A DNA stretch of 32,000 nt from Breznakia blatticola (GTDB lineage: Bacteria > Bacillota_I > Bacilli_A > Erysipelotrichales > Erysipelotrichaceae): positions 1-32,000 of the forward strand of contig NZ_SODD01000022.1 in assembly GCF_004365815.1 (NCBI RefSeq), in the 5' to 3' direction. The notes under the pieces are model-generated. The model did no database searches. It saw nothing but the letters and a program-made list of their open reading frames with translations, and had not been told where the DNA came from. Position numbers and translations under genes: made by a program. Below are positions 10,154 through 22,540 of the stretch, piece after piece (within the stretch, counting starts at the first letter, position 1; the number at the start of each line of letters is the position of its first letter).

Positions 10154-10366
10154 ATGATCGAAAACACCAAAAACATGAAATTGGATAAAAATCTAAAATA
10201 CGTGTTTGGCATTGTGCAATTGTTTAAGTTTGAACACGAGATAAATGATTTAAAAAGATGGGTCAGAGCAAAAGACTCATCTTTTTTACGTACTAATGCT
10301 GATAATTTTGCTGAAATGCTATTGTAAGAAAGAAATCATGCAAAATCAGATAAACATGCTAGATAG

Positions 10367-10693
10367 TTCTATGAGTGGTGTCACGGTAATGATTGGCAAT
10401 CAATTGTAGACAAAGATACAAAAGCACTAGTTGAATTATCAAATTCTGACTATTTGTTTTGTAAGCCCATAGAAAAGTTACATGTTCCATTATTAATGAT
10501 TGGTAGTAAAGACGATGAAATGTGTAGAGATGATATTGAGGACGAATATAATGAATTATCAAAGATTGTTCATGATGCAACAATCGAAATGTTTGATAAT
10601 GGAAATCATCTATTGATTTTATCTCGAGCTATCGAAGTAGCCGACAGTATCAAGAGATTCATTCATACAAATGATATAAAAATGAGTACATAG
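10367..10693 (+). pseudogene. Truncated alpha/beta-hydrolase gene (C-terminal third only)
   Basis: The open frame after the TAG at 10364-10366 reads ...LHVPLLMIGSKDDEM...MFDNGNHLLIL.... This looks like the Asp- and His-bearing C-terminal strands of an alpha/beta hydrolase. No GxSxG nucleophile elbow and no plausible N-terminus exist between 10154 and 10366. Confidence 0.55.
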
Positions 10694-10944: not shown

Positions 10945-10953
10945 TGGTATACT
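10945..10953 (+). promoter_or_regulatory. Extended -10 promoter (TGgTATACT) for the SNF2/SWIM pair
   Basis: TG at 10945-10946 and TATACT at 10948-10953, about 24 nt before the ATG at 10977. A GGGGG RBS-like run lies at about 10968. TTGAAT lies upstream, but with only about a 13-nt spacer. Confidence 0.4.
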
Positions 10954-10976
10954 ATAGGTAAATATATGGGGGTTGT

Positions 10977-13604
10977 ATGACAAAACATAATAAATTAGAA
11001 TTCATTTTTACCACAGATAGTTTTGTGGTTGATCAACCGCAAATCGTTCTTAGTCATGAACAAGAAAAATGGAAACAAGCTTTTTTGAAAAATCGCTACT
11101 ATGCATTATATCAATTTGGCTTGCATAACACTGAGGATTCTATTAGTTTCTCTGCATATTACTTGCGAGAAATAGTACAGACTTTTTTTAGAGAAATAAC
11201 GAATAGTCCTGACCTGGAATTGTTAAGAGATAAAGCAAAACTTAAGTTATCAAAAAATGCGATGAATGACTTATTAAGTAAGGTACCATTTGTTGTTGGT
11301 AATGAATATGTTGATAAGAAGTGGATTGCAAATATAATTAAAGAATTGCTAAAAATATTCAGAACTGAGATTAAAGCTTATAAAGGTTCTGTAAATTTAT
11401 ATATTACTGAAAAAAGCCAAAATTTACGAGTGCCTGAACGTGTCTTTTTTCATTTGGTCGAAAACAAGGAGGGGGAATATCCATTTGCATTTTTAGCTAC
11501 ATATGCTACAGAAGAAAGTAAAGGAAAAGTAAAACATGTACCTTTGGCGTATGCACTGACAGAGTTTAAGAATGACCGTTCAAAACTTTTGCAGCTTCTA
11601 GGTTGTTTAAATAAAGTCGCAGATGTATCAAATCTAATTGGTGGGTTTATTGAAAGTGGTGAATTATTTCATTCACTTGGCTTAGACGAACAAGAAGCAT
11701 ATCAATTTTTAAAAGATATACCGGCAATTGAACAAGCTGGTGTCTTGTGCCGAGTTCCAGATTGGTGGAAGCAGAAGAATGCGTCGGTTTCGATGAATGT
11801 GGTATTAGGAGAAAAGGAACCTACACTACTTGGGGCTGATTCATTGTTGAGTTTGCAACCAAAACTTATGGTTGATGGAGTGGAACTGACAAGACAGGAA
11901 GTGGAACAACTTTTAAAGGAAAGTGAAGGACTTGCATTACTAAAAGGAAAATGGGTAGAAGTCAATCATGAGAAGTTACAAAAATTGTTAGATCAAATTG
12001 ACGAAGTTGATCGTGATGATGTAAGTTTATTTGAAGCATTACGAATGGGATTGCATGGAACAGACGACACAGAAGATCCAGATGGCAATGTATATATAAG
12101 TAATGGAATGTGGATGAATAAATTCTTGCATAAATTGAGAACACCATCAATTATCAAAGGGGCAAAAGAACCGAGTAGTTTTCTAGCAACCTTACGTCCA
12201 TATCAAAAAAATGGATTTCACTGGCTCGATTATATGCATCAACTAGGTTTAGGAGCATGTATCGCTGATGATATGGGGTTAGGTAAAACGGTACAAGTTC
12301 TAGCTTATTTAGAGCGTTTACGTACTACAAAAACGGACGCAAAAGTATTACTTGTGGTTCCTGCATCATTATTAGGAAACTGGGAAAAAGAGATCAATAA
12401 ATTTGCACCTGAAATGGATTACTATATTTTGCATGGGAAAAGTGCAAAACTGTTAGAACTTGATTTTAAAGAACAATCATCATTTTTGGTGATGACAACA
12501 TATGGAATGGCTAGTCGTATAGAAAGTATCAAAGACGAAGTATGGGATACACTTGTACTAGATGAAGCGCAAGCGATTAAAAATCCATCGACTAAACAAA
12601 CAAGAGCGATTAAGAAACTACAAGGAAGAATGCGCATTATAATGACAGGAACACCAATTGAGAATAACTTGACAAACTTATGGTCATTATTTGATTTTCT
12701 TAACAAAGGATTGCTTGGGACTTCAACAGAATTTGGTGATTTCTGTAAGGAATTAGCTAAAGAAGCTTCTGGTTATGCACGTTTAAAATCTATTGTTTCA
12801 CCATTTATGTTACGTCGTTTAAAATCTGATAAAAAGATTATTAGTGATTTACCGGACAAAATCGAAATGATTGATCATATTAATTTGTCGAAGAAACAAG
12901 TGGTATTGTATCGTAAACTTGTTGATGATTTAGGTAGAACTTTACATGAAGTGGAAGGAATCAATCGACGCGGGGTAGTACTTGCATATTTAACAAAGTT
13001 TAAACAATTATGTAATCACCCAGATCAATATTTAGGACAAGAGATTTATACACCAAACGAAAGTGGAAAGTTTGAGTATTTACGCGAGTTATGCGAGACG
13101 ATTTATGAAAAAAGAGAACGTCTATTAATTTTCACGCAGTTTACTGAAGTGATACCTCAACTGCAAGATTTTCTAACAGGTATCTTTAAACAAGAAGGAC
13201 TTGTATTGCATGGAAAGACTTCAATTAAAAAACGCCAGGAAATTGTTGATACATTCCAAGGGGAAGCATATGTTCCGTATGTAATTTTATCTTTAAAAGC
13301 AGGAGGGACTGGTTTGAATTTGACCAAAGCAAGTCATGTCATTCATTTTGATCGTTGGTGGAATCCAGCAGTTGAAAATCAAGCAACAGATCGTGCTTAC
13401 CGTATTGGTCAAAAGCAAAATGTAATGGTACATAAATTTGTTTGTAGAGGCACGATTGAAGAAAAAATCGATGCATTAATTAATTCAAAAAAAGAACTTG
13501 CTGAAAATGTAATTGGATCTGGCGGAGAAAACTGGATTACCGAGATGAGCAACCAAGAATTAATGGATATGTTAAAACTAGATACAGGAGCAGGATATGA
13601 GTAG
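10977..13604 (+). CDS. SNF2/SWI2-family DNA-dependent ATPase with a ~400-aa bacterial SNF2-associated N-terminal region (YwqA-like)
   Basis: 875 aa. Motifs present: LRPYQKNGFHWL, ADDMGLGKT (GKT at 12282-12290), LVLDEAQAIKN (DEAQ at 12561-12572), MTGTPIENNL, LKAGGTGLNLT and FDRWWNPAVENQATDRAYRIGQ. The N-terminal half has no helicase motifs (VFFHLVEN...PFAFLATY). Confidence 0.9.
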   Translation: MTKHNKLEFIFTTDSFVVDQPQIVLSHEQEKWKQAFLKNRYYALYQFGLHNTEDSISFSAYYLREIVQTFFREITNSPDLELLRDKAKLKLSKNAMNDLLSKVPFVVGNEYVDKKWIANIIKELLKIFRTEIKAYKGSVNLYITEKSQNLRVPERVFFHLVENKEGEYPFAFLATYATEESKGKVKHVPLAYALTEFKNDRSKLLQLLGCLNKVADVSNLIGGFIESGELFHSLGLDEQEAYQFLKDIPAIEQAGVLCRVPDWWKQKNASVSMNVVLGEKEPTLLGADSLLSLQPKLMVDGVELTRQEVEQLLKESEGLALLKGKWVEVNHEKLQKLLDQIDEVDRDDVSLFEALRMGLHGTDDTEDPDGNVYISNGMWMNKFLHKLRTPSIIKGAKEPSSFLATLRPYQKNGFHWLDYMHQLGLGACIADDMGLGKTVQVLAYLERLRTTKTDAKVLLVVPASLLGNWEKEINKFAPEMDYYILHGKSAKLLELDFKEQSSFLVMTTYGMASRIESIKDEVWDTLVLDEAQAIKNPSTKQTRAIKKLQGRMRIIMTGTPIENNLTNLWSLFDFLNKGLLGTSTEFGDFCKELAKEASGYARLKSIVSPFMLRRLKSDKKIISDLPDKIEMIDHINLSKKQVVLYRKLVDDLGRTLHEVEGINRRGVVLAYLTKFKQLCNHPDQYLGQEIYTPNESGKFEYLRELCETIYEKRERLLIFTQFTEVIPQLQDFLTGIFKQEGLVLHGKTSIKKRQEIVDTFQGEAYVPYVILSLKAGGTGLNLTKASHVIHFDRWWNPAVENQATDRAYRIGQKQNVMVHKFVCRGTIEEKIDALINSKKELAENVIGSGGENWITEMSNQELMDMLKLDTGAGYE

Positions 13605-14328
13605 AAATTATTGGAAGTCTGAATCATACTATGATCAACCATCAGAGAGTACCTTAAAAACTAATTCATCTAATTCGCAGAAAAAGATGAAAGAAAAAGG
13701 TGTGGAATTAGAACCTATCATTATTACTGGTAGAAGTATTGCCAATAACTGGTGGGGGAAAGCATGGTGTATGAATCTTGAGAGATATGCTGATTATGAT
13801 TCTCGATTACCAAGAGGAAAACGTTATGTTCGAATGGGAACGGTTATTGACTTGAAAATCGAAAAAGGAAAAATTGCTGCAAGAGTACAAGGAAATCGCA
13901 AAACTCCATACAAAATTGAAGTTCGAATCAGCCCACTTTCAGAAGCAAAGTGCCAAGCAATTATTCAAAAAAGCAGCCATAAAATTGAGAATTTAGAAGC
14001 CCTTGTTAGTGGGCAATTCCCTGAAGAATTAAAAGATGTTTTCCTTTCAAGCGAAGGCCTATTTCCATCACCAAAAGAGATAAGCTTTAACTGCAGTTGT
14101 CCTGATTGGGCAAATATGTGTAAACATGTTGCAGCTGTATTATATGGGGTGGGAGCTCGCTTTGATAATGACCCACTATTATTCTTCCGTTTGCGTGGAA
14201 TTGAAGTTGACCGCTTTATTGATGTTGCAATTGCTAATAAAGTAGAAAGTATGTTAGAAAATGTTCATGTGAAAAGCAAGCGAATTCTTAATGAAGATGA
14301 TATATCTTCGTTATTTGGTATCTTATAA
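13597..14328 (+). CDS. SWIM zinc-finger protein (YwqB-like partner of the SNF2 ATPase)
   Basis: 243 aa. CSCPDWANMCKH (CxCx6CxH) at 14092-14127 is the SWIM signature. 8-nt overlap with the SNF2 stop. AGGAGCAGGA RBS lies inside the end of the SNF2 gene. Confidence 0.85.
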   Translation: MSRNYWKSESYYDQPSESTLKTNSSNSQKKMKEKGVELEPIIITGRSIANNWWGKAWCMNLERYADYDSRLPRGKRYVRMGTVIDLKIEKGKIAARVQGNRKTPYKIEVRISPLSEAKCQAIIQKSSHKIENLEALVSGQFPEELKDVFLSSEGLFPSPKEISFNCSCPDWANMCKHVAAVLYGVGARFDNDPLLFFRLRGIEVDRFIDVAIANKVESMLENVHVKSKRILNEDDISSLFGIL

Positions 14329-14455
14329 AAATATACATAACTGAACAAACAATTGAAAGAGTTGTAGTAGATCCTATCGTGCTTAGTGTTTTACACGATG
14401 ATAGACGAGAGATTTGAATTTGAAACACTTACAATTTGATGTCAGTTTGTTAGGT

Positions 14456-14502
14456 GAAAAGTGTCCATATTTGTTCTCTAGTAACAATGATGGATACTTT
14501 TC
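14456..14502 (+). terminator. Possible terminator / long hairpin downstream of the SWIM gene
   Basis: gaaaagtgtccat (14456-14468) pairs with atggatacttttc (14490-14502), with one G:U pair. The loop is about 21 nt, and the right arm ends in a short T-rich stretch. The large loop lowers confidence. Confidence 0.35.
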
Positions 14503-14615: not shown

Positions 14616-14644
14616 TTCACATCCTATCTAATCTTTGATATAAT
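14616..14644 (+). promoter_or_regulatory. Sigma-A-type promoter for the four-gene jet operon
   Basis: TTCACA (14616-21), a 17-nt spacer ending in TG (extended -10), then TATAAT (14639-44). The -10 overlaps the first ATG of the ORF (14643), which argues that the real start is the ATG at 14667. Confidence 0.5.
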
Positions 14645-16151
14645 GCAAATGAAAAGCGAGAGTATTATGGAAATTTATGAGAAACTAATTAAACAAGTTA
14701 CAGAAGTAAAATACTTACAGGCGGAGAATGCAGATCGATATCGTGTAATTATCCGTCATTTTTTTAATGAATATGAAAGTATACAATATTGGTTATTTAA
14801 AGAAGATGTATATGAGATGATGATGGACACTGGCTTTTTTAAAGACTATACAATTGAAAAATGTCAAAGCGATTTGGAAGCATTAATCGAGTGGGGAAAT
14901 TTGAGCGCCATTCAAGATACGTCCAAAGTAACAACAATTGATGAATTTAAGAATAAAAAGTATCGATACCAACTAAATGAATATACTGTAGAGATTGAAC
15001 GTATGATTTTACGTTTAGAAAATTTGGAAATAGAAGGAGCGTCACTAGAACCAACCTTGTTGGAACGATTGGCTACTTCTTTACGTAATTTTCCTAAAAT
15101 CTTACAAAAGAATAGTGAAGGAATTAGTGTTTGGTGGCGTGATGTAAACAATGATTTCATGAGATTGAATCAAAACTACCAAGATTATTTGAAAACCTTA
15201 AACTCACAACGAGCAGAAGAATTGATGCAGTCTGAAGAGTTTCTTGTCTACAAAGATCATTTGATTTCATATTTACGTAACTTCGTGTTGGGGTTACAAA
15301 AGCATGGGTCGATTATTGGAGGATATTTGCAACATGTAAATACAAAGGATGTAGATTCCATGGTAGCAGAAGTAGTTGCCTATGAAATGTCAATCCCACG
15401 TTTGGATCGTATCATTGATGAAGAAGAATTAGAAACTTCCATTCGTAAACGTTGGAATAATCTCATACATTGGTTCGTGGATGGCATAAGACAAAGTGAG
15501 TTATCAAGACTGTATGATACGACTAATGAAGTCATTCGCAAAATTACTCGTTATGCACAACAAATTAGTGAGAGTAAACACCGTAATGCAAATCGTAAGC
15601 AAGAGTATAAACATATCGCCAACATTTTTGGAAAATGTGATTCCTTATTTGAAGCACATTGTTTGAGTGCACAAGTATTTGGTGTACGAGATATGTTTCA
15701 TTTTGTGGATTTAGATGCGCGTAGTACAGATAATATAGATAGTGGTGTATATGATGAAAAACCAAGTATGAGAAAACTTGAACCTCGTGCACGTATCGCA
15801 AGGAAAACAACGACACGTGAAGTAGCAAGAGATTACGCATTAGAAAAACAGATGTATCTACTACAGGTGGAAGCAGAAAAAAAGAAACAACAAGATACAC
15901 TTAATGAACTTATGCAAGAAGGAAAGATAACATTTCAGGAACTCCCTTTAATTTCTGCGTTTACGCGTAAAATGTTACTTACATGGGTTTCCAAAGCACT
16001 GCAAAATAAAAACAAGCAAGCAAAGACTGAATTTGGTACACGCTATAAAGTACATGTACCTGATGTTGAAGATACATGCAAAGTAGAGTGTGAAGATGGA
16101 ATATTTCACGCACCTAATTTTGTGATTGAGTTTATGGAGGATGTACAATGA
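14643..16151 (+). CDS. jetA: Wadjet type II JetA-like subunit (kleisin/MksB-like; DUF2397/TIGR02677-like by size and position)
   Basis: First gene of the overlapping four-gene operon. 502 aa (494 aa if the start is 14667, MEIYEKL...). Helical and charged, with no enzymatic motifs. Called from operon architecture rather than from recognisable motifs. Confidence 0.6.
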   Translation: MQMKSESIMEIYEKLIKQVTEVKYLQAENADRYRVIIRHFFNEYESIQYWLFKEDVYEMMMDTGFFKDYTIEKCQSDLEALIEWGNLSAIQDTSKVTTIDEFKNKKYRYQLNEYTVEIERMILRLENLEIEGASLEPTLLERLATSLRNFPKILQKNSEGISVWWRDVNNDFMRLNQNYQDYLKTLNSQRAEELMQSEEFLVYKDHLISYLRNFVLGLQKHGSIIGGYLQHVNTKDVDSMVAEVVAYEMSIPRLDRIIDEEELETSIRKRWNNLIHWFVDGIRQSELSRLYDTTNEVIRKITRYAQQISESKHRNANRKQEYKHIANIFGKCDSLFEAHCLSAQVFGVRDMFHFVDLDARSTDNIDSGVYDEKPSMRKLEPRARIARKTTTREVARDYALEKQMYLLQVEAEKKKQQDTLNELMQEGKITFQELPLISAFTRKMLLTWVSKALQNKNKQAKTEFGTRYKVHVPDVEDTCKVECEDGIFHAPNFVIEFMEDVQ

Positions 16152-17263
16152 AAGAACTACAAAGCTTAATCGCAAAACAGTGGATAATCAAGGCAGATGA
16201 TCCAGAATTGTACTATAAGATTAAAGACCAACTGAAAATACTCCGCAATTTTGTGCAGGAGAAATTAGGATATCAAATCATAGTGAGTCCTTTGATGATT
16301 AAACTTGAGAAACTACCAGCAAAAGCGGAACCTTGGATGGGGATTCAAGAATTTCAAAGTATTAAAGAATATCAAATGCTTTGTTTCGTATTAATGTTTT
16401 TAGAAGACAAAGAAAATGAGCAACAATTTGTACTTTCGGAAATTACAGAGTTTATACTTGTGCAGTTCCAAGATGAAAGCATTGATTGGACAAAATTCAC
16501 AACACGTAAGCAATTGATTCGAGTACTTAAGTTTTGTGTTGATATGGGAATGTTAGTTGTTAATGATGGAGATGGGGAATTGTTTTCAAAAGATGTTGAA
16601 ATTGAAGTGTTGTATGAAAATACTGGAATTTCACGCTATTTCCTGCGTAATTTTTTTAGTGATGTGTTACGTTTAAATCAGCCAAGAGATTTTCATGATT
16701 CGACATGGTTTGATGTTGATGAAACCAGTGGTATTGTACGTCGACAAAGAGTGTATCGTCGATTATTGCTTTCACCAGGAGTCTATCGTGAAAACGATGC
16801 ATTAGAAGATTTTGCTTATCTTAGAAATAAAAGAAATCAAATTGAACGTGATTTTCAAAGTTTCTTACCTTGTGAAATACACTTACATAAATCTAGTGCC
16901 TATTTAGTTTTGGAGGACTATAAAAAAAGTTCATACTTCCCGAAAACCCAAGCCAAAGATGAAGTGCTTTTGTGTATATGCAAAGCTATTCAAGAGTATG
17001 CAGGTGAGCAAGTATTAGCAGAACATGAAATACTGTCTTTATCATTTAAAGATTTTGAACATCTTGTATTTCAATGTATTACACGAATTATTAAAGCTTT
17101 ACCCAAAACGTATCGTGATAAAACAGTTTCATTACTAAGCAATGAGGCAATTGAACACTTAATTAACTATGGGTTTGTCGTAGTGGAAAATGAAATAGTG
17201 AAGATCCAACCAATTGTGGCGAAAATTGGTGGTAGCTATGAAGGAGTAGATGACAATGAATAA
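16148..17263 (+). CDS. jetB: Wadjet type II JetB-like subunit (MksE-like; DUF2398/TIGR02678-like by size and position)
   Basis: 371 aa. ATGA start/stop overlap with the upstream gene, and a GGAGGA RBS at 16136-16141. No catalytic motifs. The size fits type II JetB rather than the shorter type I JetB. Confidence 0.6.
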   Translation: MKELQSLIAKQWIIKADDPELYYKIKDQLKILRNFVQEKLGYQIIVSPLMIKLEKLPAKAEPWMGIQEFQSIKEYQMLCFVLMFLEDKENEQQFVLSEITEFILVQFQDESIDWTKFTTRKQLIRVLKFCVDMGMLVVNDGDGELFSKDVEIEVLYENTGISRYFLRNFFSDVLRLNQPRDFHDSTWFDVDETSGIVRRQRVYRRLLLSPGVYRENDALEDFAYLRNKRNQIERDFQSFLPCEIHLHKSSAYLVLEDYKKSSYFPKTQAKDEVLLCICKAIQEYAGEQVLAEHEILSLSFKDFEHLVFQCITRIIKALPKTYRDKTVSLLSNEAIEHLINYGFVVVENEIVKIQPIVAKIGGSYEGVDDNE

Positions 17264-20200
17264 GAAATGGAAAATGCATCGGTTTGGACTTATCGATTTT
17301 TGGTATTATGTAAATGAAGAATTCTACTTTTCTGATGGACATATGCTTCTTAGAGGGAGTAATGGTAGTGGGAAATCTGTAACGTTACAAAGTTGTATTC
17401 CTTTGCTACTGGACGGAAATCGTAGTAGCGAAAGAATCGATCCGTTTGGAACACGCGCAAGAAAAGTAGACACTTATTTAATTGATGAAGACAGTGATCG
17501 TGAGGAACGCATTGGCTATCTTTACTTGGAATTTAAGAAAAGTGATAGTGAGTTATATACAACTATAGGAATGGGACTTAGAGCACGTAAAAATAAACCA
17601 CTTGAAAGTTGGTATTTTGTGATTGAAGACAATATGCGTGTCAATAAAGACTTGCAACTTATCAAACACGGTCTTGCGCTGACGAAAAAAGAATTACGTA
17701 ATATCATTGGTAATCAATTAATTGAGCAACAAAAACAATATATGGAAAAAGTTAATAAAGTACTTTTTGGTTTTGAGACAACTGAAGAATATAAGGAAGC
17801 AATTGATTTGTTACTTCAAGTACGTCGTCCAAAATTAAGTAATGATTTTAAGCCAACAATGTTAAACGAGGTACTTAATCAATCTTTACAACCACTAAGT
17901 GAAGAAGACTTACGTCCTATGAGTGAAGCGATTACCAACATGGACAGCATCAAAGACCAGTTGGATACACTCAAGATTAATATTCAAGCTGCAAATGTTA
18001 TTGAAAAAGAATACGATTTACATAGCTATTACAATGTGTTTAGAAAGCTTGAACTTTATGAGCAAGAACAAAAACAACTAAAATCTTTGCAAAATGAATT
18101 GGAATTCAAAGGAAAAGAAATTCAACGTATTCAACAAGAAAGAGAGTATTTAGATGCGCGTCAAATCGATTTAGATAATGAGCGTAGTATCTTAGAAGAA
18201 GAACGTCGAAGTTTAGCTAGTGACGACATACAAGCAAAACAAGATACTTTACAAGATGCAAATCATAAACATGGTGATTTAGTTATTGCTTTGGCCAATA
18301 AAGAAAAGAAAATAAACGCACTTGATAGTGATCTGTGGGATCAACGCAAGCGCGAAAAACAAAAACAAGATGAGATGGATGCTAAGTACGCACAACTACA
18401 AATATATATTCAAGAATTGGATGGACTTCATGAATCCTTTGTTTTTGGTGAACACGAATCCATGAAAGAATCCGTCTTTCCAAAACTTGAAAGACAATAT
18501 GATTTAAATCATGAACGTACACAACTACAAAATCTGATAACGAAGACAAGAGAAGGATTGCAACACTTTAAAAATCTTTCGATTTACCAAATGCAAAAGA
18601 ATAATATTCAAGAAGCTTACGAACTTGATAAAGAGGTATATACGATACAAGAAAAATTGTTGGTGCAACAACAACAAAACTATCAAAATGTAGTGGAAGA
18701 CTATAAAGCAAATATCGTCAGTTGGAATTATGAAAACCATTTACTAAAACTAAGTGATGAACAAAAACAACAAATGATGAAAGCTTTACTTGCTTATGAA
18801 GATCAGCAAGATTATCACACCATACGTGATTGTCTCGATACGCTCTACAAGAAACAGGAAAAAGAATTTCTACATAAACAATTATTCCTAGACAATAAAA
18901 GCAAAGAAATTCACCAACAAAAAAGTCAAATGGAAAGAGAGATGGAAGTTTGGCAAAATAAGCAAGATATTCAGCCAGAACTACACCAAGAAGCTCTAGA
19001 AAATCGTAAGTTGTTGCGCAAAATGAAGATTCCATTTGTGCCGTTTTATAGTGTGTTGGAGTTTGATCCAAACATGCAAGACTCACAGCGAAATTATTGG
19101 GAAGAAGTGATTGATGCAACTGGCTTACTTCACGCAACAATTGTTGAAGAAAAGTACCGTGAACAAATCTTATCTATGGATGAAGCGTATGCAGATGTCT
19201 ATGTCTTTACAGAACGCACTTTAGAGTCTATTGATTCTTATGAAATTAAAGCAAACACAACGCTTGCTCAAATCATGGATACATTACAGATTGTAGAGAA
19301 AAGTAAAGTCATTGTACACGAACAGACAATTCAGTTAGGATATCTTGAGAAACGAATTTCACAAAGAAATCAATCCAAATACATTGGAAGTAAGGCGCGT
19401 GAAGCATACCGTAAAAAGATGTTGATGCAAATGCAAGAGCAACTTGATGCAATAACTTTATTGATGGAAGAAAATCAAAAAGAGTGGCAAACATTACAAG
19501 ATGATAAACAACAACTAGAAAATGAGTATCATGGATTTCCTAGTGAAACGCGATTATATGATTCCTATAAAGCAGTACACAATGTAGAAATTGCATTAGA
19601 GAATCTACAGTCCCAAATGGATATTAAAAACAAGAACTTACAAGAGATTCATGCAAAAATGCAACCGATTGTTTTAGAAATCAATAAGATTGCTAAACTT
19701 GTGGATATCGAAGAAAATGAAGTAGTTTTTCAAGAAAAATTGGAAGTAATGAAGGACTATGAAACAGTATTCACAAGATTTAGTGACTTGCAAAATAAAT
19801 ACTATAGTGATTTTGAGATTTTGCAGACACGAAAAGAAATGTTAGAAAGTACGCAACTACAATTAGATGAAATACAAGGTGATGTGATACGTATAAAACA
19901 AGATATTACGAAAGTAGAAGGTCAAATTTCAATACTTGAGGAACAACTTCAAGACTTGGGAATTGCAGATATCCAACAACGCTTAGAAACAATTGGTAAT
20001 CGACTTTTCTCAATTGGAAAAGAGCGAGATAACAATCAATTAACGATTGGAGATCACAATCGAAATATTCTTAATTTAAATGATGCAAAAAATGAGATAG
20101 TTGAGCAAATCAAACAGCAAGAAGTAAAAGTTGTGCAATATCAAGATGTTCTTATCGAAGAATTACAAATTGGATATTTTGAACATCCTATTAATTCCTT

Positions 20201-21254
20201 TCAAGAACTTAAAGCGTACAAAACAGAAGATCATGAAAAACGTATGTTACTGGGAAAAAATACTGCGAAGATGCAAGATATTTTCCATAATAATAAGGCA
20301 CCATTAGCTGAATACCATTTATCAAATACACCATTACAAATAATGGATGGTGTTGAAGGAGTACCAACACGTTTTGTGATTGATGCTAAATTTGCTGGAA
20401 AACAAGTGAATTTCTTCAAACTAGTTGAAATTTTGAAAGAAACGATTGAGGAACATGAAAAACTACTACTCGATAGTGATCGTCAATTATTTGAAGATAT
20501 ATTGATTCACACGATTAGTAGTAAGGTAAAATACAAAATTAATCAAAGTCGACGTTGGGTCGAACAAATGAATGTATATATGGATGCAATGAATACAAGT
20601 AGTAATTTGAAATTGCAACTTGTATGGAAGGCAAAAAAAGCTGACGATGATGAACAAATGCATGTAAATGAGTTAATTAAGTTATTAGAAATTGATGCAG
20701 CAATTATCAAGCCAAGCGACTTAACAAAAATTTCTCGTCATTTCCGTTCAAAGATTAACCAAGCACGGACCATCGCAAATAGTACAGAAAGCTTTAGTAG
20801 TTTTCATCAAATTATGAAAGAAGTAATGGACTATCGTTCATGGTTTGAATTTACTATTATTTATGAAAAAGACTTAGTAAAAGATAAGGAACTAACGAAT
20901 AATAAATTTGCGACTTTCAGTGGTGGAGAGAAAGCAATTTCGATGTACATTCCTTTATTTTCAGCCGTGGCTGCAAAGTTTAGTAGTGGAAAAGCGGATG
21001 CACCAAGTATGATTGCTTTAGATGAAGCGTTTGCGGGAGTTGATGATAACAATATCGAATCAATGTTCGAATTAATAGAAAAGTTTAACTTTGATTATAT
21101 TATGAACTCACAAATCTTATGGGGAGATTATCCAAGTGTTAAGTCTTTAAATATATATGAATTACATCGACCTGAAGGAGGTAAGTTCGTTAGTATATTT
21201 AGATACCACTGGAATGGACAAGAAAAAAGTTATATTGCAGGAGATGTTGCATGA
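17250..21254 (+). CDS. jetC: Wadjet JetC-like SMC/MukB-type ATPase (EptC/MksF-like)
   Basis: 1334 aa. N-terminal head carries Walker A GSNGSGKS (17355-17378). About 1100 aa of Q/E/K/L-rich coiled coil follow. C-terminal head carries the signature FSGGEKA (SGGEK at 20919-20933) and Walker B MIALDEAFAGVDD (DE at 21021-21026). AGGAG at 17242-17246 favours the ATG at 17256 as the true start. Confidence 0.85.
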   Translation: MTMNKKWKMHRFGLIDFWYYVNEEFYFSDGHMLLRGSNGSGKSVTLQSCIPLLLDGNRSSERIDPFGTRARKVDTYLIDEDSDREERIGYLYLEFKKSDSELYTTIGMGLRARKNKPLESWYFVIEDNMRVNKDLQLIKHGLALTKKELRNIIGNQLIEQQKQYMEKVNKVLFGFETTEEYKEAIDLLLQVRRPKLSNDFKPTMLNEVLNQSLQPLSEEDLRPMSEAITNMDSIKDQLDTLKINIQAANVIEKEYDLHSYYNVFRKLELYEQEQKQLKSLQNELEFKGKEIQRIQQEREYLDARQIDLDNERSILEEERRSLASDDIQAKQDTLQDANHKHGDLVIALANKEKKINALDSDLWDQRKREKQKQDEMDAKYAQLQIYIQELDGLHESFVFGEHESMKESVFPKLERQYDLNHERTQLQNLITKTREGLQHFKNLSIYQMQKNNIQEAYELDKEVYTIQEKLLVQQQQNYQNVVEDYKANIVSWNYENHLLKLSDEQKQQMMKALLAYEDQQDYHTIRDCLDTLYKKQEKEFLHKQLFLDNKSKEIHQQKSQMEREMEVWQNKQDIQPELHQEALENRKLLRKMKIPFVPFYSVLEFDPNMQDSQRNYWEEVIDATGLLHATIVEEKYREQILSMDEAYADVYVFTERTLESIDSYEIKANTTLAQIMDTLQIVEKSKVIVHEQTIQLGYLEKRISQRNQSKYIGSKAREAYRKKMLMQMQEQLDAITLLMEENQKEWQTLQDDKQQLENEYHGFPSETRLYDSYKAVHNVEIALENLQSQMDIKNKNLQEIHAKMQPIVLEINKIAKLVDIEENEVVFQEKLEVMKDYETVFTRFSDLQNKYYSDFEILQTRKEMLESTQLQLDEIQGDVIRIKQDITKVEGQISILEEQLQDLGIADIQQRLETIGNRLFSIGKERDNNQLTIGDHNRNILNLNDAKNEIVEQIKQQEVKVVQYQDVLIEELQIGYFEHPINSFQELKAYKTEDHEKRMLLGKNTAKMQDIFHNNKAPLAEYHLSNTPLQIMDGVEGVPTRFVIDAKFAGKQVNFFKLVEILKETIEEHEKLLLDSDRQLFEDILIHTISSKVKYKINQSRRWVEQMNVYMDAMNTSSNLKLQLVWKAKKADDDEQMHVNELIKLLEIDAAIIKPSDLTKISRHFRSKINQARTIANSTESFSSFHQIMKEVMDYRSWFEFTIIYEKDLVKDKELTNNKFATFSGGEKAISMYIPLFSAVAAKFSSGKADAPSMIALDEAFAGVDDNNIESMFELIEKFNFDYIMNSQILWGDYPSVKSLNIYELHRPEGGKFVSIFRYHWNGQEKSYIAGDVA

Positions 21255-22540
21255 TTGAACAATTTGTCCGATATCTAAAAGATACACCAGGACTAGTTCG
21301 TTTTATGGATGCGTGGAAGGAAAAATATATCAAACTAAATACACTAGGTGGCACTATTAAACTAGATGATTTAAGCACCGAAGAGAAAAGTGCGATCGGT
21401 GCTTTAATCGGACGTGACTTAAGTCAGCAAAATTCTATCGTATTAAGTTATACAAAACTTATTAAAGCTTTGCGCAATACAAGATTTGAGGAAGTTGATT
21501 TTCAAGATGTTGTACTTGCATATTATGATGGATGTATTGTTTCCAAAAAAGAGGAAAATGCGGTACAACAAGAAAAAAGGAAAATATTAAAACATAAACT
21601 ATTTAATGATCTTAAGGCGACTATAGCTTATGGGTGGTTAGTAAAGATGGAAGTAGAAAATCCATCTTTATTCACACAAATGCTTCAACAATATAAACGA
21701 AATCCACAAAGAATTATGATGATTACCCAAGCACTTAATACACTACCCATTTGGGAAAATAAGGTACGTTCTTTAAGTGTGTTTGCTAGCAGTGTTGCAC
21801 AAGATCCACATTTTTTTGATGGTGGTAGCAACCTTAATTTCTTGTTGCACGCCATTCAATATGCATTAGATGTACAAGAAACACCAACAAGTCGTATTGA
21901 AAAAAATGAAATACTTGCAAGAGCTGGGTTGCTAAAGGAAGAAACCACAAATTACATTACCGTATTTCAAGTACAAATGAAAAACAAAAAGAATATTGAA
22001 GATGTTGGTCTTACTTGGTTTACAAAACAAGGACAGTCGATAAATCTACATATTGGAAATTTACAGACATATCAAGAAGCTTATGGTAGTACCCATATTC
22101 TTATTTTAGAAAATCCTTCAGTATTTCAAGTGCTTCAACAATATTTAATTGATCAAAAAATCAAGAATGTAGGGATTGTTTGTACATATGGAGAGTTAAC
22201 TTTAGCTGCCTATAAACTTTTAGATATTCTCAAACTATGCGATGCACATTTGTATTACGCAGGAGATTTTGATCCTGAAGGAGTACTTATTGCACAAAGA
22301 GTAAGTCAACGTCTAGAAGGGAACATCTCATTTCTTCACTATACGAAAAGTGATTTTGAATGTGCAAGTGCGAAAGCTATTCACTCAGATTCACGTCTGC
22401 AGAAATTAGAAAATGTTTCATTAAGTGATTTAAGTGTAATTAAAGAGTGTATACGAGAGTTTCAAACTGTTGGGTATCAAGAAGCATTACTTACTAAATA
22501 TATGCGGACAATTGATGTGTGGAATATGAGTATGAAGTAA
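21251..22540 (+). CDS. jetD: Wadjet JetD-like Toprim nuclease subunit (MksG-like; DUF3323 + DUF2399-like)
   Basis: 429 aa. ATGA overlap with jetC, and an AGGAGA RBS. The C-terminal half carries HILILENPSVF (Glu codon at 22109-22111) and YYAGDFDPEG (DxD at 22265-22273). Together these give the Toprim E...DxD pattern. Confidence 0.8.
   Translation: MIEQFVRYLKDTPGLVRFMDAWKEKYIKLNTLGGTIKLDDLSTEEKSAIGALIGRDLSQQNSIVLSYTKLIKALRNTRFEEVDFQDVVLAYYDGCIVSKKEENAVQQEKRKILKHKLFNDLKATIAYGWLVKMEVENPSLFTQMLQQYKRNPQRIMMITQALNTLPIWENKVRSLSVFASSVAQDPHFFDGGSNLNFLLHAIQYALDVQETPTSRIEKNEILARAGLLKEETTNYITVFQVQMKNKKNIEDVGLTWFTKQGQSINLHIGNLQTYQEAYGSTHILILENPSVFQVLQQYLIDQKIKNVGIVCTYGELTLAAYKLLDILKLCDAHLYYAGDFDPEGVLIAQRVSQRLEGNISFLHYTKSDFECASAKAIHSDSRLQKLENVSLSDLSVIKECIREFQTVGYQEALLTKYMRTIDVWNMSMK

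Follow-up and report, generated by a model that had tools for sequence, protein, structure and literature searches.

SWIM zinc fingers serve in the recognition of DNA or proteins. The SWIM domain was reportedly defined by Makarova in 2002, and its gene linkage to SNF2-family ATPases is said to have been recognised at that time. The closest known ATPases belong to the SsoRad54/SSO1653 subfamily, which was also treated by Flaus in 2006. According to Durr et al. 2005, the Sulfolobus homologue is reportedly an ATPase stimulated by double-stranded DNA (dsDNA), which translocates on the duplex and generates torsion without unwinding it. To our knowledge, none of the family's members has been given a role in the cell, and structural study has been limited to the Sulfolobus catalytic core. 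Here, we analysed a stretch of 32,000 nucleotides (nt) from Breznakia blatticola (Erysipelotrichia; contig NZ_SODD01000022.1), which we call the window. It contains a gene pair encoding an SNF2-family ATPase and a SWIM zinc-finger protein, located directly upstream of a Wadjet operon. Our analysis points to a known but functionally unassigned family, whose two genes form an autonomous cassette that resides preferentially among defence genes, and for which a role in genetic conflict is plausible.

The family appears as SWIM-associated SWI2/SNF2 in Iyer et al. 2017 (PMC5512222), who described it as present in mobile systems, and a 2023 paper (PMC10236294) counts bacterial SWI2/SNF2 ATPases among the proteins that led to the original identification of the SWIM domain. 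In the window, the closest solved relative of the motor was the Sulfolobus SSO1653 core (1Z63; E = 7e-127, amino acids (aa) 398-871), well ahead of INO80 and ISWI of eukaryotes (~1e-71). We placed the pair in the known family because its motor is nearest to SSO1653 and because the linkage with SWIM is named in both papers. Judged by its sequence, the pair is a member of the already named SWIM-associated SWI2/SNF2 (SsoRad54/SSO1653-like) family. Like other members it combines a complete SNF2 motif set and two RecA-like lobes with a SWIM protein that is adjacent or fused to the motor. Nothing that defines the family differs here; the window holds the bacterial split form, with a DUF3670 ATPase and a separate SWIM protein of 243 aa. 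The first-pass annotation of this DNA had taken the SWIM-SNF2 linkage as already known and the function as unassigned. Both statements hold, as the pair is tightly coupled and of a previously recognised type, and our literature search found no functional study of a DUF3670-SNF2/SWIM pair. Outside the motor core, sequence and fold searches of the PDB yielded no solved relative for either protein.

Several other described proteins share the SNF2 motor with the pair. The best NCBIfam match was NF058637 (SCO1167/SCO6262 family helicase; actinobacterial SNF2 proteins of the DUF3670 type), whose cut-off of 1200 bits was well above the 583 bits obtained. It aligned with aa 234-868, comprising DUF3670 and the motor, and left the N-terminal 230 aa of the window protein uncovered, so that a full-length match was lacking; NF058637 is best regarded as a related subfamily and not as the same equivalog. 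PADLOC cross-matches of the SNF2 protein with ZorD (1e-122) and DpdE (3e-115) were confined to aa ~306-865, i.e., to the shared motor. NCBIfam scores remained far below the cut-offs for ZorD of Zorya I (284 bits versus 1500), DrmD of DISARM (111 versus 950, and 74 versus 610) and DpdE of the Dpd system (52 versus 500), none of which therefore includes the window protein. All three reside in defence islands, like the pair in the window. However, the window protein has no Mrr-like nuclease domain, and the ORFs (open reading frames) of the window included no ZorA, ZorB or ZorC, no DrmABC or methylase, and no Dpd partner genes.

Two housekeeping ATPases invite comparison as well. RapA/HepA, which like the window protein is a bacterial SNF2 ATPase without nuclease, acts by remodelling a complex of protein and DNA, and provides a reasonable model for how the pair may act. 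It differs in having neither a SWIM partner nor DUF3670, and the window protein scored 55 bits versus a cut-off of 576 with the NCBIfam model PRK04914. Bacillus subtilis YwqA (with YwqB) shares with the pair the link between a bacterial Swi2/Snf2 ATPase and a SWIM finger; YwqA has been reported to interact with RNA polymerase (RNAP) and has been classed among RapA-like factors. The first-pass annotation had equated the pair with YwqA/YwqB, for which we found no support. YwqA presumably carries the SNF2_assoc domain (PF08455), which marks another type of SWIM-linked SNF2 (seen in L089, below) and had also been expected in the window. The hidden Markov models SNF2-rel_dom, Helicase_C and SWIM were matched as expected, whereas Pfam found no SNF2_assoc in the 875-aa protein and reported DUF3670 instead.

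The SNF2-family ATPase gene is located at 10977-13604 and encodes 875 aa; this gene and all other features of the pair and of the Wadjet operon given below with window coordinates lie on the forward strand. The encoded protein of the DUF3670 type was delimited by ORF, translation and Pfam, and begins with a family-specific N-terminal region without Pfam match (aa 1-230; 10977-11666). This region is followed by DUF3670 (PF12419, aa 231-357; 11667-12047; Pfam 3.7e-30), a marker of this SNF2 subfamily, and by the SNF2 motor core (12201-13409), consisting of SNF2-rel_dom (aa 409-683; 1.8e-60) and Helicase_C (aa 698-811; 6.1e-21). The motor contains the motifs DDMGLGKT (aa 431-438), DEAQ (529-532), TGTPIEN (557-563) and QATDRAYRIGQ (802-812). 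In an alignment of 24 homologues, GLGKT, DEAQ, TGTPIEN and DRAYRIGQ were all invariant, in line with the complete motif set that had been read in the C-terminal half. The N-terminal 230 aa were also conserved among these 24 homologues, with many invariant residues, and DUF3670 recurred in a Bradyrhizobium plasmid homologue and in a Wolbachia fusion protein. In public sources the SNF2 protein (P0001) is called a 'non-specific serine/threonine protein kinase'; this annotation is wrong, because its domain content is that of an SNF2 ATPase.

The SWIM zinc-finger partner gene (13597-14328; ORF and translation) encodes 243 aa. Both cassette proteins have exact database matches, P0001 for the SNF2 protein and P0121 for the SWIM protein, located on a contig of 36,948 bp. 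The SWIM finger, C166-x-C168-x6-C175-x-H177 (CSCPDWANMCKH; 14092-14127), scored 20.7 bits in Pfam, barely above the cut-off of 19.6. Its four ligands (C166, C168, C175 and H177) were invariant in 24 sequences, and the CxCx6CxH finger noticed at first reading is indeed present. Homologues of the SWIM partner were 62-72% identical among the matches listed. The PADLOC candidate PDC-S62, a model of 566 positions, did not match the SWIM partner over its full length; the match reached 20-30 bits and was restricted to model positions ~20-88, as in eight other SWIM partners. This weak match to the N-terminus of PDC-S62 was seen in all tested SWIM partners, from Firmicutes, Proteobacteria, Synergistales and contigs of viral collections. 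It suggests that the SWIM partners and the larger candidate PDC-S62 share an N-terminal module.

No nuclease or methylase domain was detected in either cassette protein by Pfam, PADLOC or NCBIfam, nor any other effector, consistent with the earlier reading. Fold searches likewise revealed no nuclease, which is weak evidence since both AlphaFold2 models are moderate. The model of the SNF2 protein aa 1-400 had a predicted local distance difference test (pLDDT) of 74 and a predicted template modelling score (pTM) of 0.46, and found no match in the PDB at E<=0.001. The model of the SWIM partner was somewhat better (pLDDT 79, pTM 0.74). It had no fold match at E<=0.001 either, ZSWIM8 being the only suggestive one (probability 0.47), and the SWIM partner also had no solved relative in the PDB by sequence search. 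We had considered a hidden nuclease or a known adaptor fold, and neither emerged from the PDB fold searches of both models.

The two genes overlap from the start codon of the SWIM gene to the stop codon of the SNF2 gene (ATGAGTAG; 13597-13604). The SWIM ATG at 13597 lies 8 nt within the SNF2 gene, the SNF2 TAG occupies 13602-13604, and AGGAG precedes the ATG. ORFs, translations and start and stop positions thus agree with the 875-aa and 243-aa proteins and the 8-nt overlap described before. Translation of the SWIM gene is predicted to be coupled to that of the SNF2 gene via this overlap.

The family is large. Among the matches listed, clustering at 90% identity left over 7,900 groups for each of the two proteins, with non-self SNF2 matches being 59-66% identical, and the family occurred in at least 590 species genomes. 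The SWIM partner had 6,847 representatives at 50% identity, of which 1,259 with E<=1e-30; many were longer, at 300-500 aa. From the species genomes we drew 80 loci of other species to study the linkage between the two genes. In 78 of the 80 loci, the SWIM gene was immediately preceded by a co-oriented SNF2 homologue. In one of the two exceptions (L065) the locus ends at a contig edge. In the other (L058, 5350-5994) a SWIM homologue without upstream SNF2 gene misses its first 28 residues, and is probably a remnant, i.e., an N-terminally truncated orphan. The spacing between the genes varied from gaps of 15-64 nt in Lachnospiraceae to a 4-nt overlap on rhizobial plasmids; the conserved feature of the pair, as far as its sequences tell, is the adjacency and not the overlap.

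Clustering of all ORFs of 81 loci showed that only the two cassette genes recurred, and that the best neighbour family was present in only 7 of the 81 loci. Because no other neighbour is conserved, the pair appears to move as a self-contained cassette. The first-pass annotation had named a conserved housekeeping synteny as an argument against a defence module; these loci provided no such synteny.

In some lineages the cassette consists of one polypeptide. A fusion protein in a Wolbachia WO prophage region has the SWIM module at aa 1-221 (32% identity, E=1e-30) and DUF3670 at aa 541-672, followed by the SNF2 motor. SWIM, DUF3670 and SNF2 are arranged likewise in L175 and L176, whose fusion proteins measure 1144 and 1175 aa. 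Since natural fusions exist, the separate SWIM and SNF2 proteins may well form a physical complex. The single-polypeptide forms were found at L177 6001-8841, L176 10001-13528, L175 2088-5522 and L184 8989-12477, and their sources are the Wolbachia WO prophage region, IMG/VR contigs and a conjugative plasmid of Aeromonas salmonicida.

The cassette was present on 138 of 72,556 plasmid records (0.19%), mostly megaplasmids or chromids, of which 56 were conjugative and 26 mobilisable. Plasmid carriers came from several phyla and included Bradyrhizobium (38), Streptomyces (34), Cupriavidus, Nostoc and Aeromonas. On the conjugative Aeromonas plasmid the fused form is located beside AbiEii, Hok/Gef, a reverse transcriptase and AIPR, and near ParA. 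Viruses almost lacked the cassette, which was present in 2 phage records out of 50,697 and in 5 viral contigs out of 2.9 million. When 72 SNF2 proteins were compared by identity distance, the values, on an inflated scale, were 71-72 between the window and Lachnospiraceae versus 64-68 between the window and Erysipelotrichaceae; as evidence for horizontal transfer this would be a weak signal, and we did not rely on it. The same scale gave 85-88 for a cassette on a contig assigned to Segatella copri (L054), which grouped with copies from Catenibacterium and Eubacterium sp. TM05-53. Its Bacteroidota origin is doubtful because of this grouping, and the contig may represent either a wrong genome bin or a recent transfer of the cassette.

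PADLOC was used to study the neighbourhood of the pair. The neighbour set extended two ORFs from the pair in either direction, in total 221 ORFs from 75 loci, while 129 ORFs called alike in three arbitrary 50-kb (kilobase) stretches of Escherichia coli K-12 served as control. At E<=1e-10, the neighbours matched 185 + 80 = 265 PADLOC models. In contrast, the control ORFs matched only 8 models, all of them generic (ABC-ATPase 'mad3', MotB-like and GlgB). Matches at E<1e-50 were found for at least 14 of the 221 neighbours versus none of the 129 control ORFs (Fisher p=0.003). Strong, specific matches included JetB3/JetC3 (2 loci), PDC-S01 (3), type II restriction enzymes (2), PDC-S27, PDC-S23, PDC-S05, a Cas3-like and a DpdF-like protein, and AbiLi. 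Defence-family genes adjoined the pair far more often than they adjoined control genes, which by this operational measure places the pair in defence islands. A lack of defence enrichment, the other argument that had been named against a defence module, was not observed. The absence of housekeeping synteny and the enrichment of defence genes among the neighbours mean that the pair can still be read as a plausible defence-island module.

In the Pfam annotation of the 145 nearest neighbour ORFs, the most frequent families were AAA-ATPase_like (5), PDDEXK_9 (4), AAA_14 (3) and GDSL lipase (3), with two ORFs each for serine recombinases and the HaeIII restriction enzyme. The contexts of seven homologues were annotated with Pfam. 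Type III Wadjet is located upstream of the pair in L085 and L178, with Dcm/Vsr/EcoRII downstream in L085, and GmrSD and BrxC-like genes downstream in L178. In L083 the pair is preceded by gmk/holB and followed by ORC-CDC6-like, PRTase-CE and DNA methylase genes. L180 has the pair in a region for flagellin glycosylation that also holds AAA-ATPase_like/PDDEXK_9 and a fragment of GmrSD, L182 in a polysaccharide locus with an AAA_21 pair, and L086 between recA upstream and sugar genes downstream. A second SNF2 helicase, of 1606 aa, is encoded on the opposite strand ~2 kb downstream of the pair in a Lachnospiraceae locus (L047, 6221-11041, reverse strand); it alone matches 22 PADLOC models of ZorD, DpdE and DrmD.

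The region behind the cassette differed between closely related strains. The cassette genes of L178/L179 (13383-18511) and L002 (10752-12528) are 99% identical and probably belong to one species, while a segment of ~4 kb, behind the GDSL lipase gene and in front of YjbR, sets these loci apart; two GmrSD_N proteins and a 372-aa ORF are encoded there. The same slot after the GDSL lipase gene is occupied in L085 by an AAA_35 ATPase and the Dcm/Vsr/EcoRII system. We interpret the slot directly behind the cassette, from its gene content, as a strain-variable defence hotspot.

The co-oriented jetABCD operon that had been seen directly downstream of the pair is a complete type II Wadjet (14643-22540; PADLOC), which is context to the cassette and not part of it. 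PADLOC matched JetA2 (9e-191), JetB2 (7e-126), JetC2 (E=0) and JetD2 (6e-99), in agreement with Pfam and TIGRFAM. Searches (tblastn) with the type II Jet proteins of the window found none of them in the 80 pair loci (0/80). In the opposite direction, we sampled 84 type II Wadjet loci, i.e., 80 metagenome contigs, some of them probably conspecific, and 4 loci of the three closest JetA relatives. A DUF3670-SNF2 gene, a SWIM partner or any SNF2 core was found within 10 kb of none of them (0/84). The pair was adjacent to Wadjet in none of the three closest Wadjet relatives, whose flanks contain Cas9, UvrC and AAA_14 genes.

The tblastn result by itself suggested the absence of any link with Wadjet, but PADLOC detected type III Wadjet in L085. 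Two related Lachnospiraceae species have the gene order JetD3-A3-B3-C3, 28-114 nt, SNF2-SWIM, GDSL lipase, and then the defence hotspot. Between these two species, SNF2 is 87%, SWIM 92% and JetC3 68% identical. Direct adjacency of the pair and Wadjet hence arose at least 2 times among ~81 species, with different types of Wadjet on different sides of the pair. By rough estimate, ~0.01 cases would be expected from uniform random placement, and a few tenths if the two share defence islands. This pattern fits a shared habitat rather than an obligatory partnership, and the adjacency in the window looks like a circumstantial, shared neighbourhood and not a dedicated partnership.

The closest relatives of this type II Wadjet had neighbours of their own. 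In L088, the closest relative (JetA 70% identical), a Cas9-like gene (RuvC_III, HNH_4; 1280 aa, cut at the end of the locus) is located directly downstream of Wadjet at 16962-20326. In the second-closest relative (JetA 68% identical; two contigs, one of them from a JGI metagenome) an SNF2_assoc (PF08455) helicase of 1069 aa is encoded 2.3 kb downstream of jetD (L089 12123-13460; L090 10239-11577), by a gene that extends past the locus sequence. In L089 this protein has a weak SWIM match within its own N-terminus. It represents another type of SNF2 with a SWIM link in the vicinity of this Wadjet lineage.

Taken as a whole, we tentatively read the pair as a two-subunit, nuclease-free dsDNA translocase, autonomous and resident in defence islands, with a conflict-related role as a plausible though by no means assured function. 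The SWIM protein would be made in step with the ATPase and would bind it, most likely via the family-specific N-terminal/DUF3670 region, and may act as a substrate-recognition or gating subunit. The complex would then track duplex DNA with ATP, displacing or remodelling bound proteins or DNA structures. By analogy with the Sulfolobus homologue, strand separation and cutting would not be expected. Because the pair resides in defence islands, its targets would most likely be foreign or aberrant DNA-protein complexes of plasmids or phages, and host nucleases or neighbouring systems would complete the job. Several observations weigh against a role in conflict. No defence model for the pair exists in PADLOC, NCBIfam or Pfam, the only cross-matches being those with ZorD, DpdE and DrmD over the core, and neither Pfam, PADLOC nor the fold searches revealed an effector domain in the pair. 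The genes are unusually conserved for defence genes, with the 87% identity of SNF2 against 68% for the adjacent JetC3 between the two Lachnospiraceae species, and they are stable within species, where 24 contigs have one common context. Some contexts look like housekeeping, with recA (L086) or gmk/holB (L083) upstream. Furthermore, the control for the enrichment was a single E. coli genome of another phylum, and the model counts are inflated by multi-model families, as the 22 models of one extra SNF2 helicase illustrate. A bolder proposal is that the cassette itself constitutes a stand-alone nuclease-free system against plasmids or phages, in which the translocase would strip foreign DNA of proteins for replication, partition or packaging, with SWIM as the sensor, and which may act with Wadjet in some lineages (type II here, type III in the Lachnospiraceae clade); we consider it doubtful.

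The same conservation would suit a housekeeping remodeller for genome maintenance, which like RapA/HepA or YwqA would free or backtrack stalled RNAP or clear replication-transcription roadblocks, with defence genes next to it only because variable regions tend to build up there. Strong purifying selection, slower evolution than the adjacent Wadjet, stability within species, the absence of an effector domain, the recA and gmk/holB contexts, the very large family and the reported interaction of the RapA-like factor YwqA with RNAP are all in keeping with this role. We nevertheless regard it as somewhat unlikely, as synteny was not conserved across the 80 species, plasmids of several phyla carry the pair and defence families are enriched among its neighbours. 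The score with the RapA model was low, and the YwqA data may not transfer to the window protein because it lacks the SNF2_assoc domain that we take YwqA to have. The window pair is also slightly nearer to Lachnospiraceae than to other Erysipelotrichaceae, which does not make a cleanly vertical pattern. Carriage on plasmids, many of them conjugative or mobilisable, raises a different option, namely that the pair is cargo of mobile elements with an anti-defence or establishment role, stripping for instance restriction or SMC-type (structural maintenance of chromosomes) complexes from incoming DNA, in which it would resemble other SWI2/SNF2 ATPases of plasmids and phages. The fused form near ParA on the Aeromonas plasmid, the fusion in the Wolbachia WO prophage region, the serine recombinases among the neighbours and the mobile systems in which Iyer et al. 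(PMC5512222) place the family all point in this direction. However, the near-absence from viruses, the small fraction of plasmid records, dominated by megaplasmids or chromids, and the chromosomal and stable position of most loci make it improbable, and neither integrase nor transfer genes, att repeats or tRNA were found in the window. Highly improbable, finally, is a dedicated accessory of Wadjet, in which JetABCD would have its DNA remodelled or loaded, or its products processed, by SNF2-SWIM, the two operons forming one functional system. This possibility, too, had been raised by the first-pass annotation. It gains something from the co-oriented type II operon at 314-338 nt without convincing terminator in between, from the type III arrangement kept in two Lachnospiraceae species, and from the SWIM-bearing SNF2_assoc protein downstream of jetD in the closest-but-one Wadjet relative. 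Yet recurrent co-occurrence with jetABCD was not found: one lineage had an adjacent type III system, its two related species representing one event, and type II systems were absent from all 80 pair loci. The closest Wadjet relatives are flanked by other genes, jetA has its own promoter-like site, and side and type differ between the two adjacency events. As a general rule, a Wadjet accessory is largely refuted by the counts of 0/80 and 0/84.

The transcription signals around the pair were scanned as well. An extended -10-like element (TGgTATACT; 10945-10953) is located 24 nt 5' of the SNF2 start, identified by pattern match alone, and is followed by the ribosome-binding site GGGGG of the SNF2 gene (10968-10972). 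The extended -10 element that had been proposed is thus present, but it has no canonical -35; the consensus promoter scan did not list it because there is no -35 at 16-18 nt. The terminator suspected behind the pair did not materialise: the scan found no terminator-like site after the SWIM gene (14328), and the RNA fold of 14325-14470 was not better than that of shuffled sequences (z = -0.14). The gap between the SWIM gene and jetA, which have the same orientation, measures 314-338 nt depending on the start of jetA. The jetA ORF is listed from 14643, and its start is probably at 14667 because the database protein P0241 has 494 aa. A promoter-like site (TTCACA-17-TATAAT with TG; 14616-14644) matched 11 of 12 positions in the consensus scan. 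Wadjet probably has its own promoter, since this strong site, ending at 14644, overlaps the start of the longer jetA ORF.

The block of SNF2-SWIM and Wadjet is flanked by sugar loci, with PTS-cellobiose (phosphotransferase system)/GH1/RpiR to its left and melibiase/AraC/MFS to its right, as expected from its description as an insert within such loci. Neither composition nor structure, however, gave any indication of a discrete insertion. The guanine-cytosine content was uniform throughout the window (0.31-0.35), only short repeats at chance level were found at the boundaries, no flanking repeats, tRNA or integrase were detected in the window, and its ORFs included no transfer genes. At the left edge of the block, a decayed C-terminal fragment of an alpha/beta-hydrolase (GSKDD...GNH) occupies a stop-interrupted frame at ~10340-10693, and hints at a past rearrangement at this junction.

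Few SNF2 proteins of prokaryotes are as widespread as the SWIM-associated ATPases, and the pair in the window is typical of this family recognised since 2002; its link with Wadjet is circumstantial. Our analysis adds that the pair forms an autonomous and fusible cassette, preferentially located among defence genes and independent of Wadjet, and narrows the hypotheses to a conflict-related versus a housekeeping role. With a compact and intact pair from a cultured organism, beside a complete Wadjet operon, the window offers an experimental entry point. If the ordinary reading is true, it simply adds a further copy to a family that is known but uncharacterised. If the cassette is a stand-alone immune cassette, one of the largest uncharacterised SNF2 families of prokaryotes would be an immune module.

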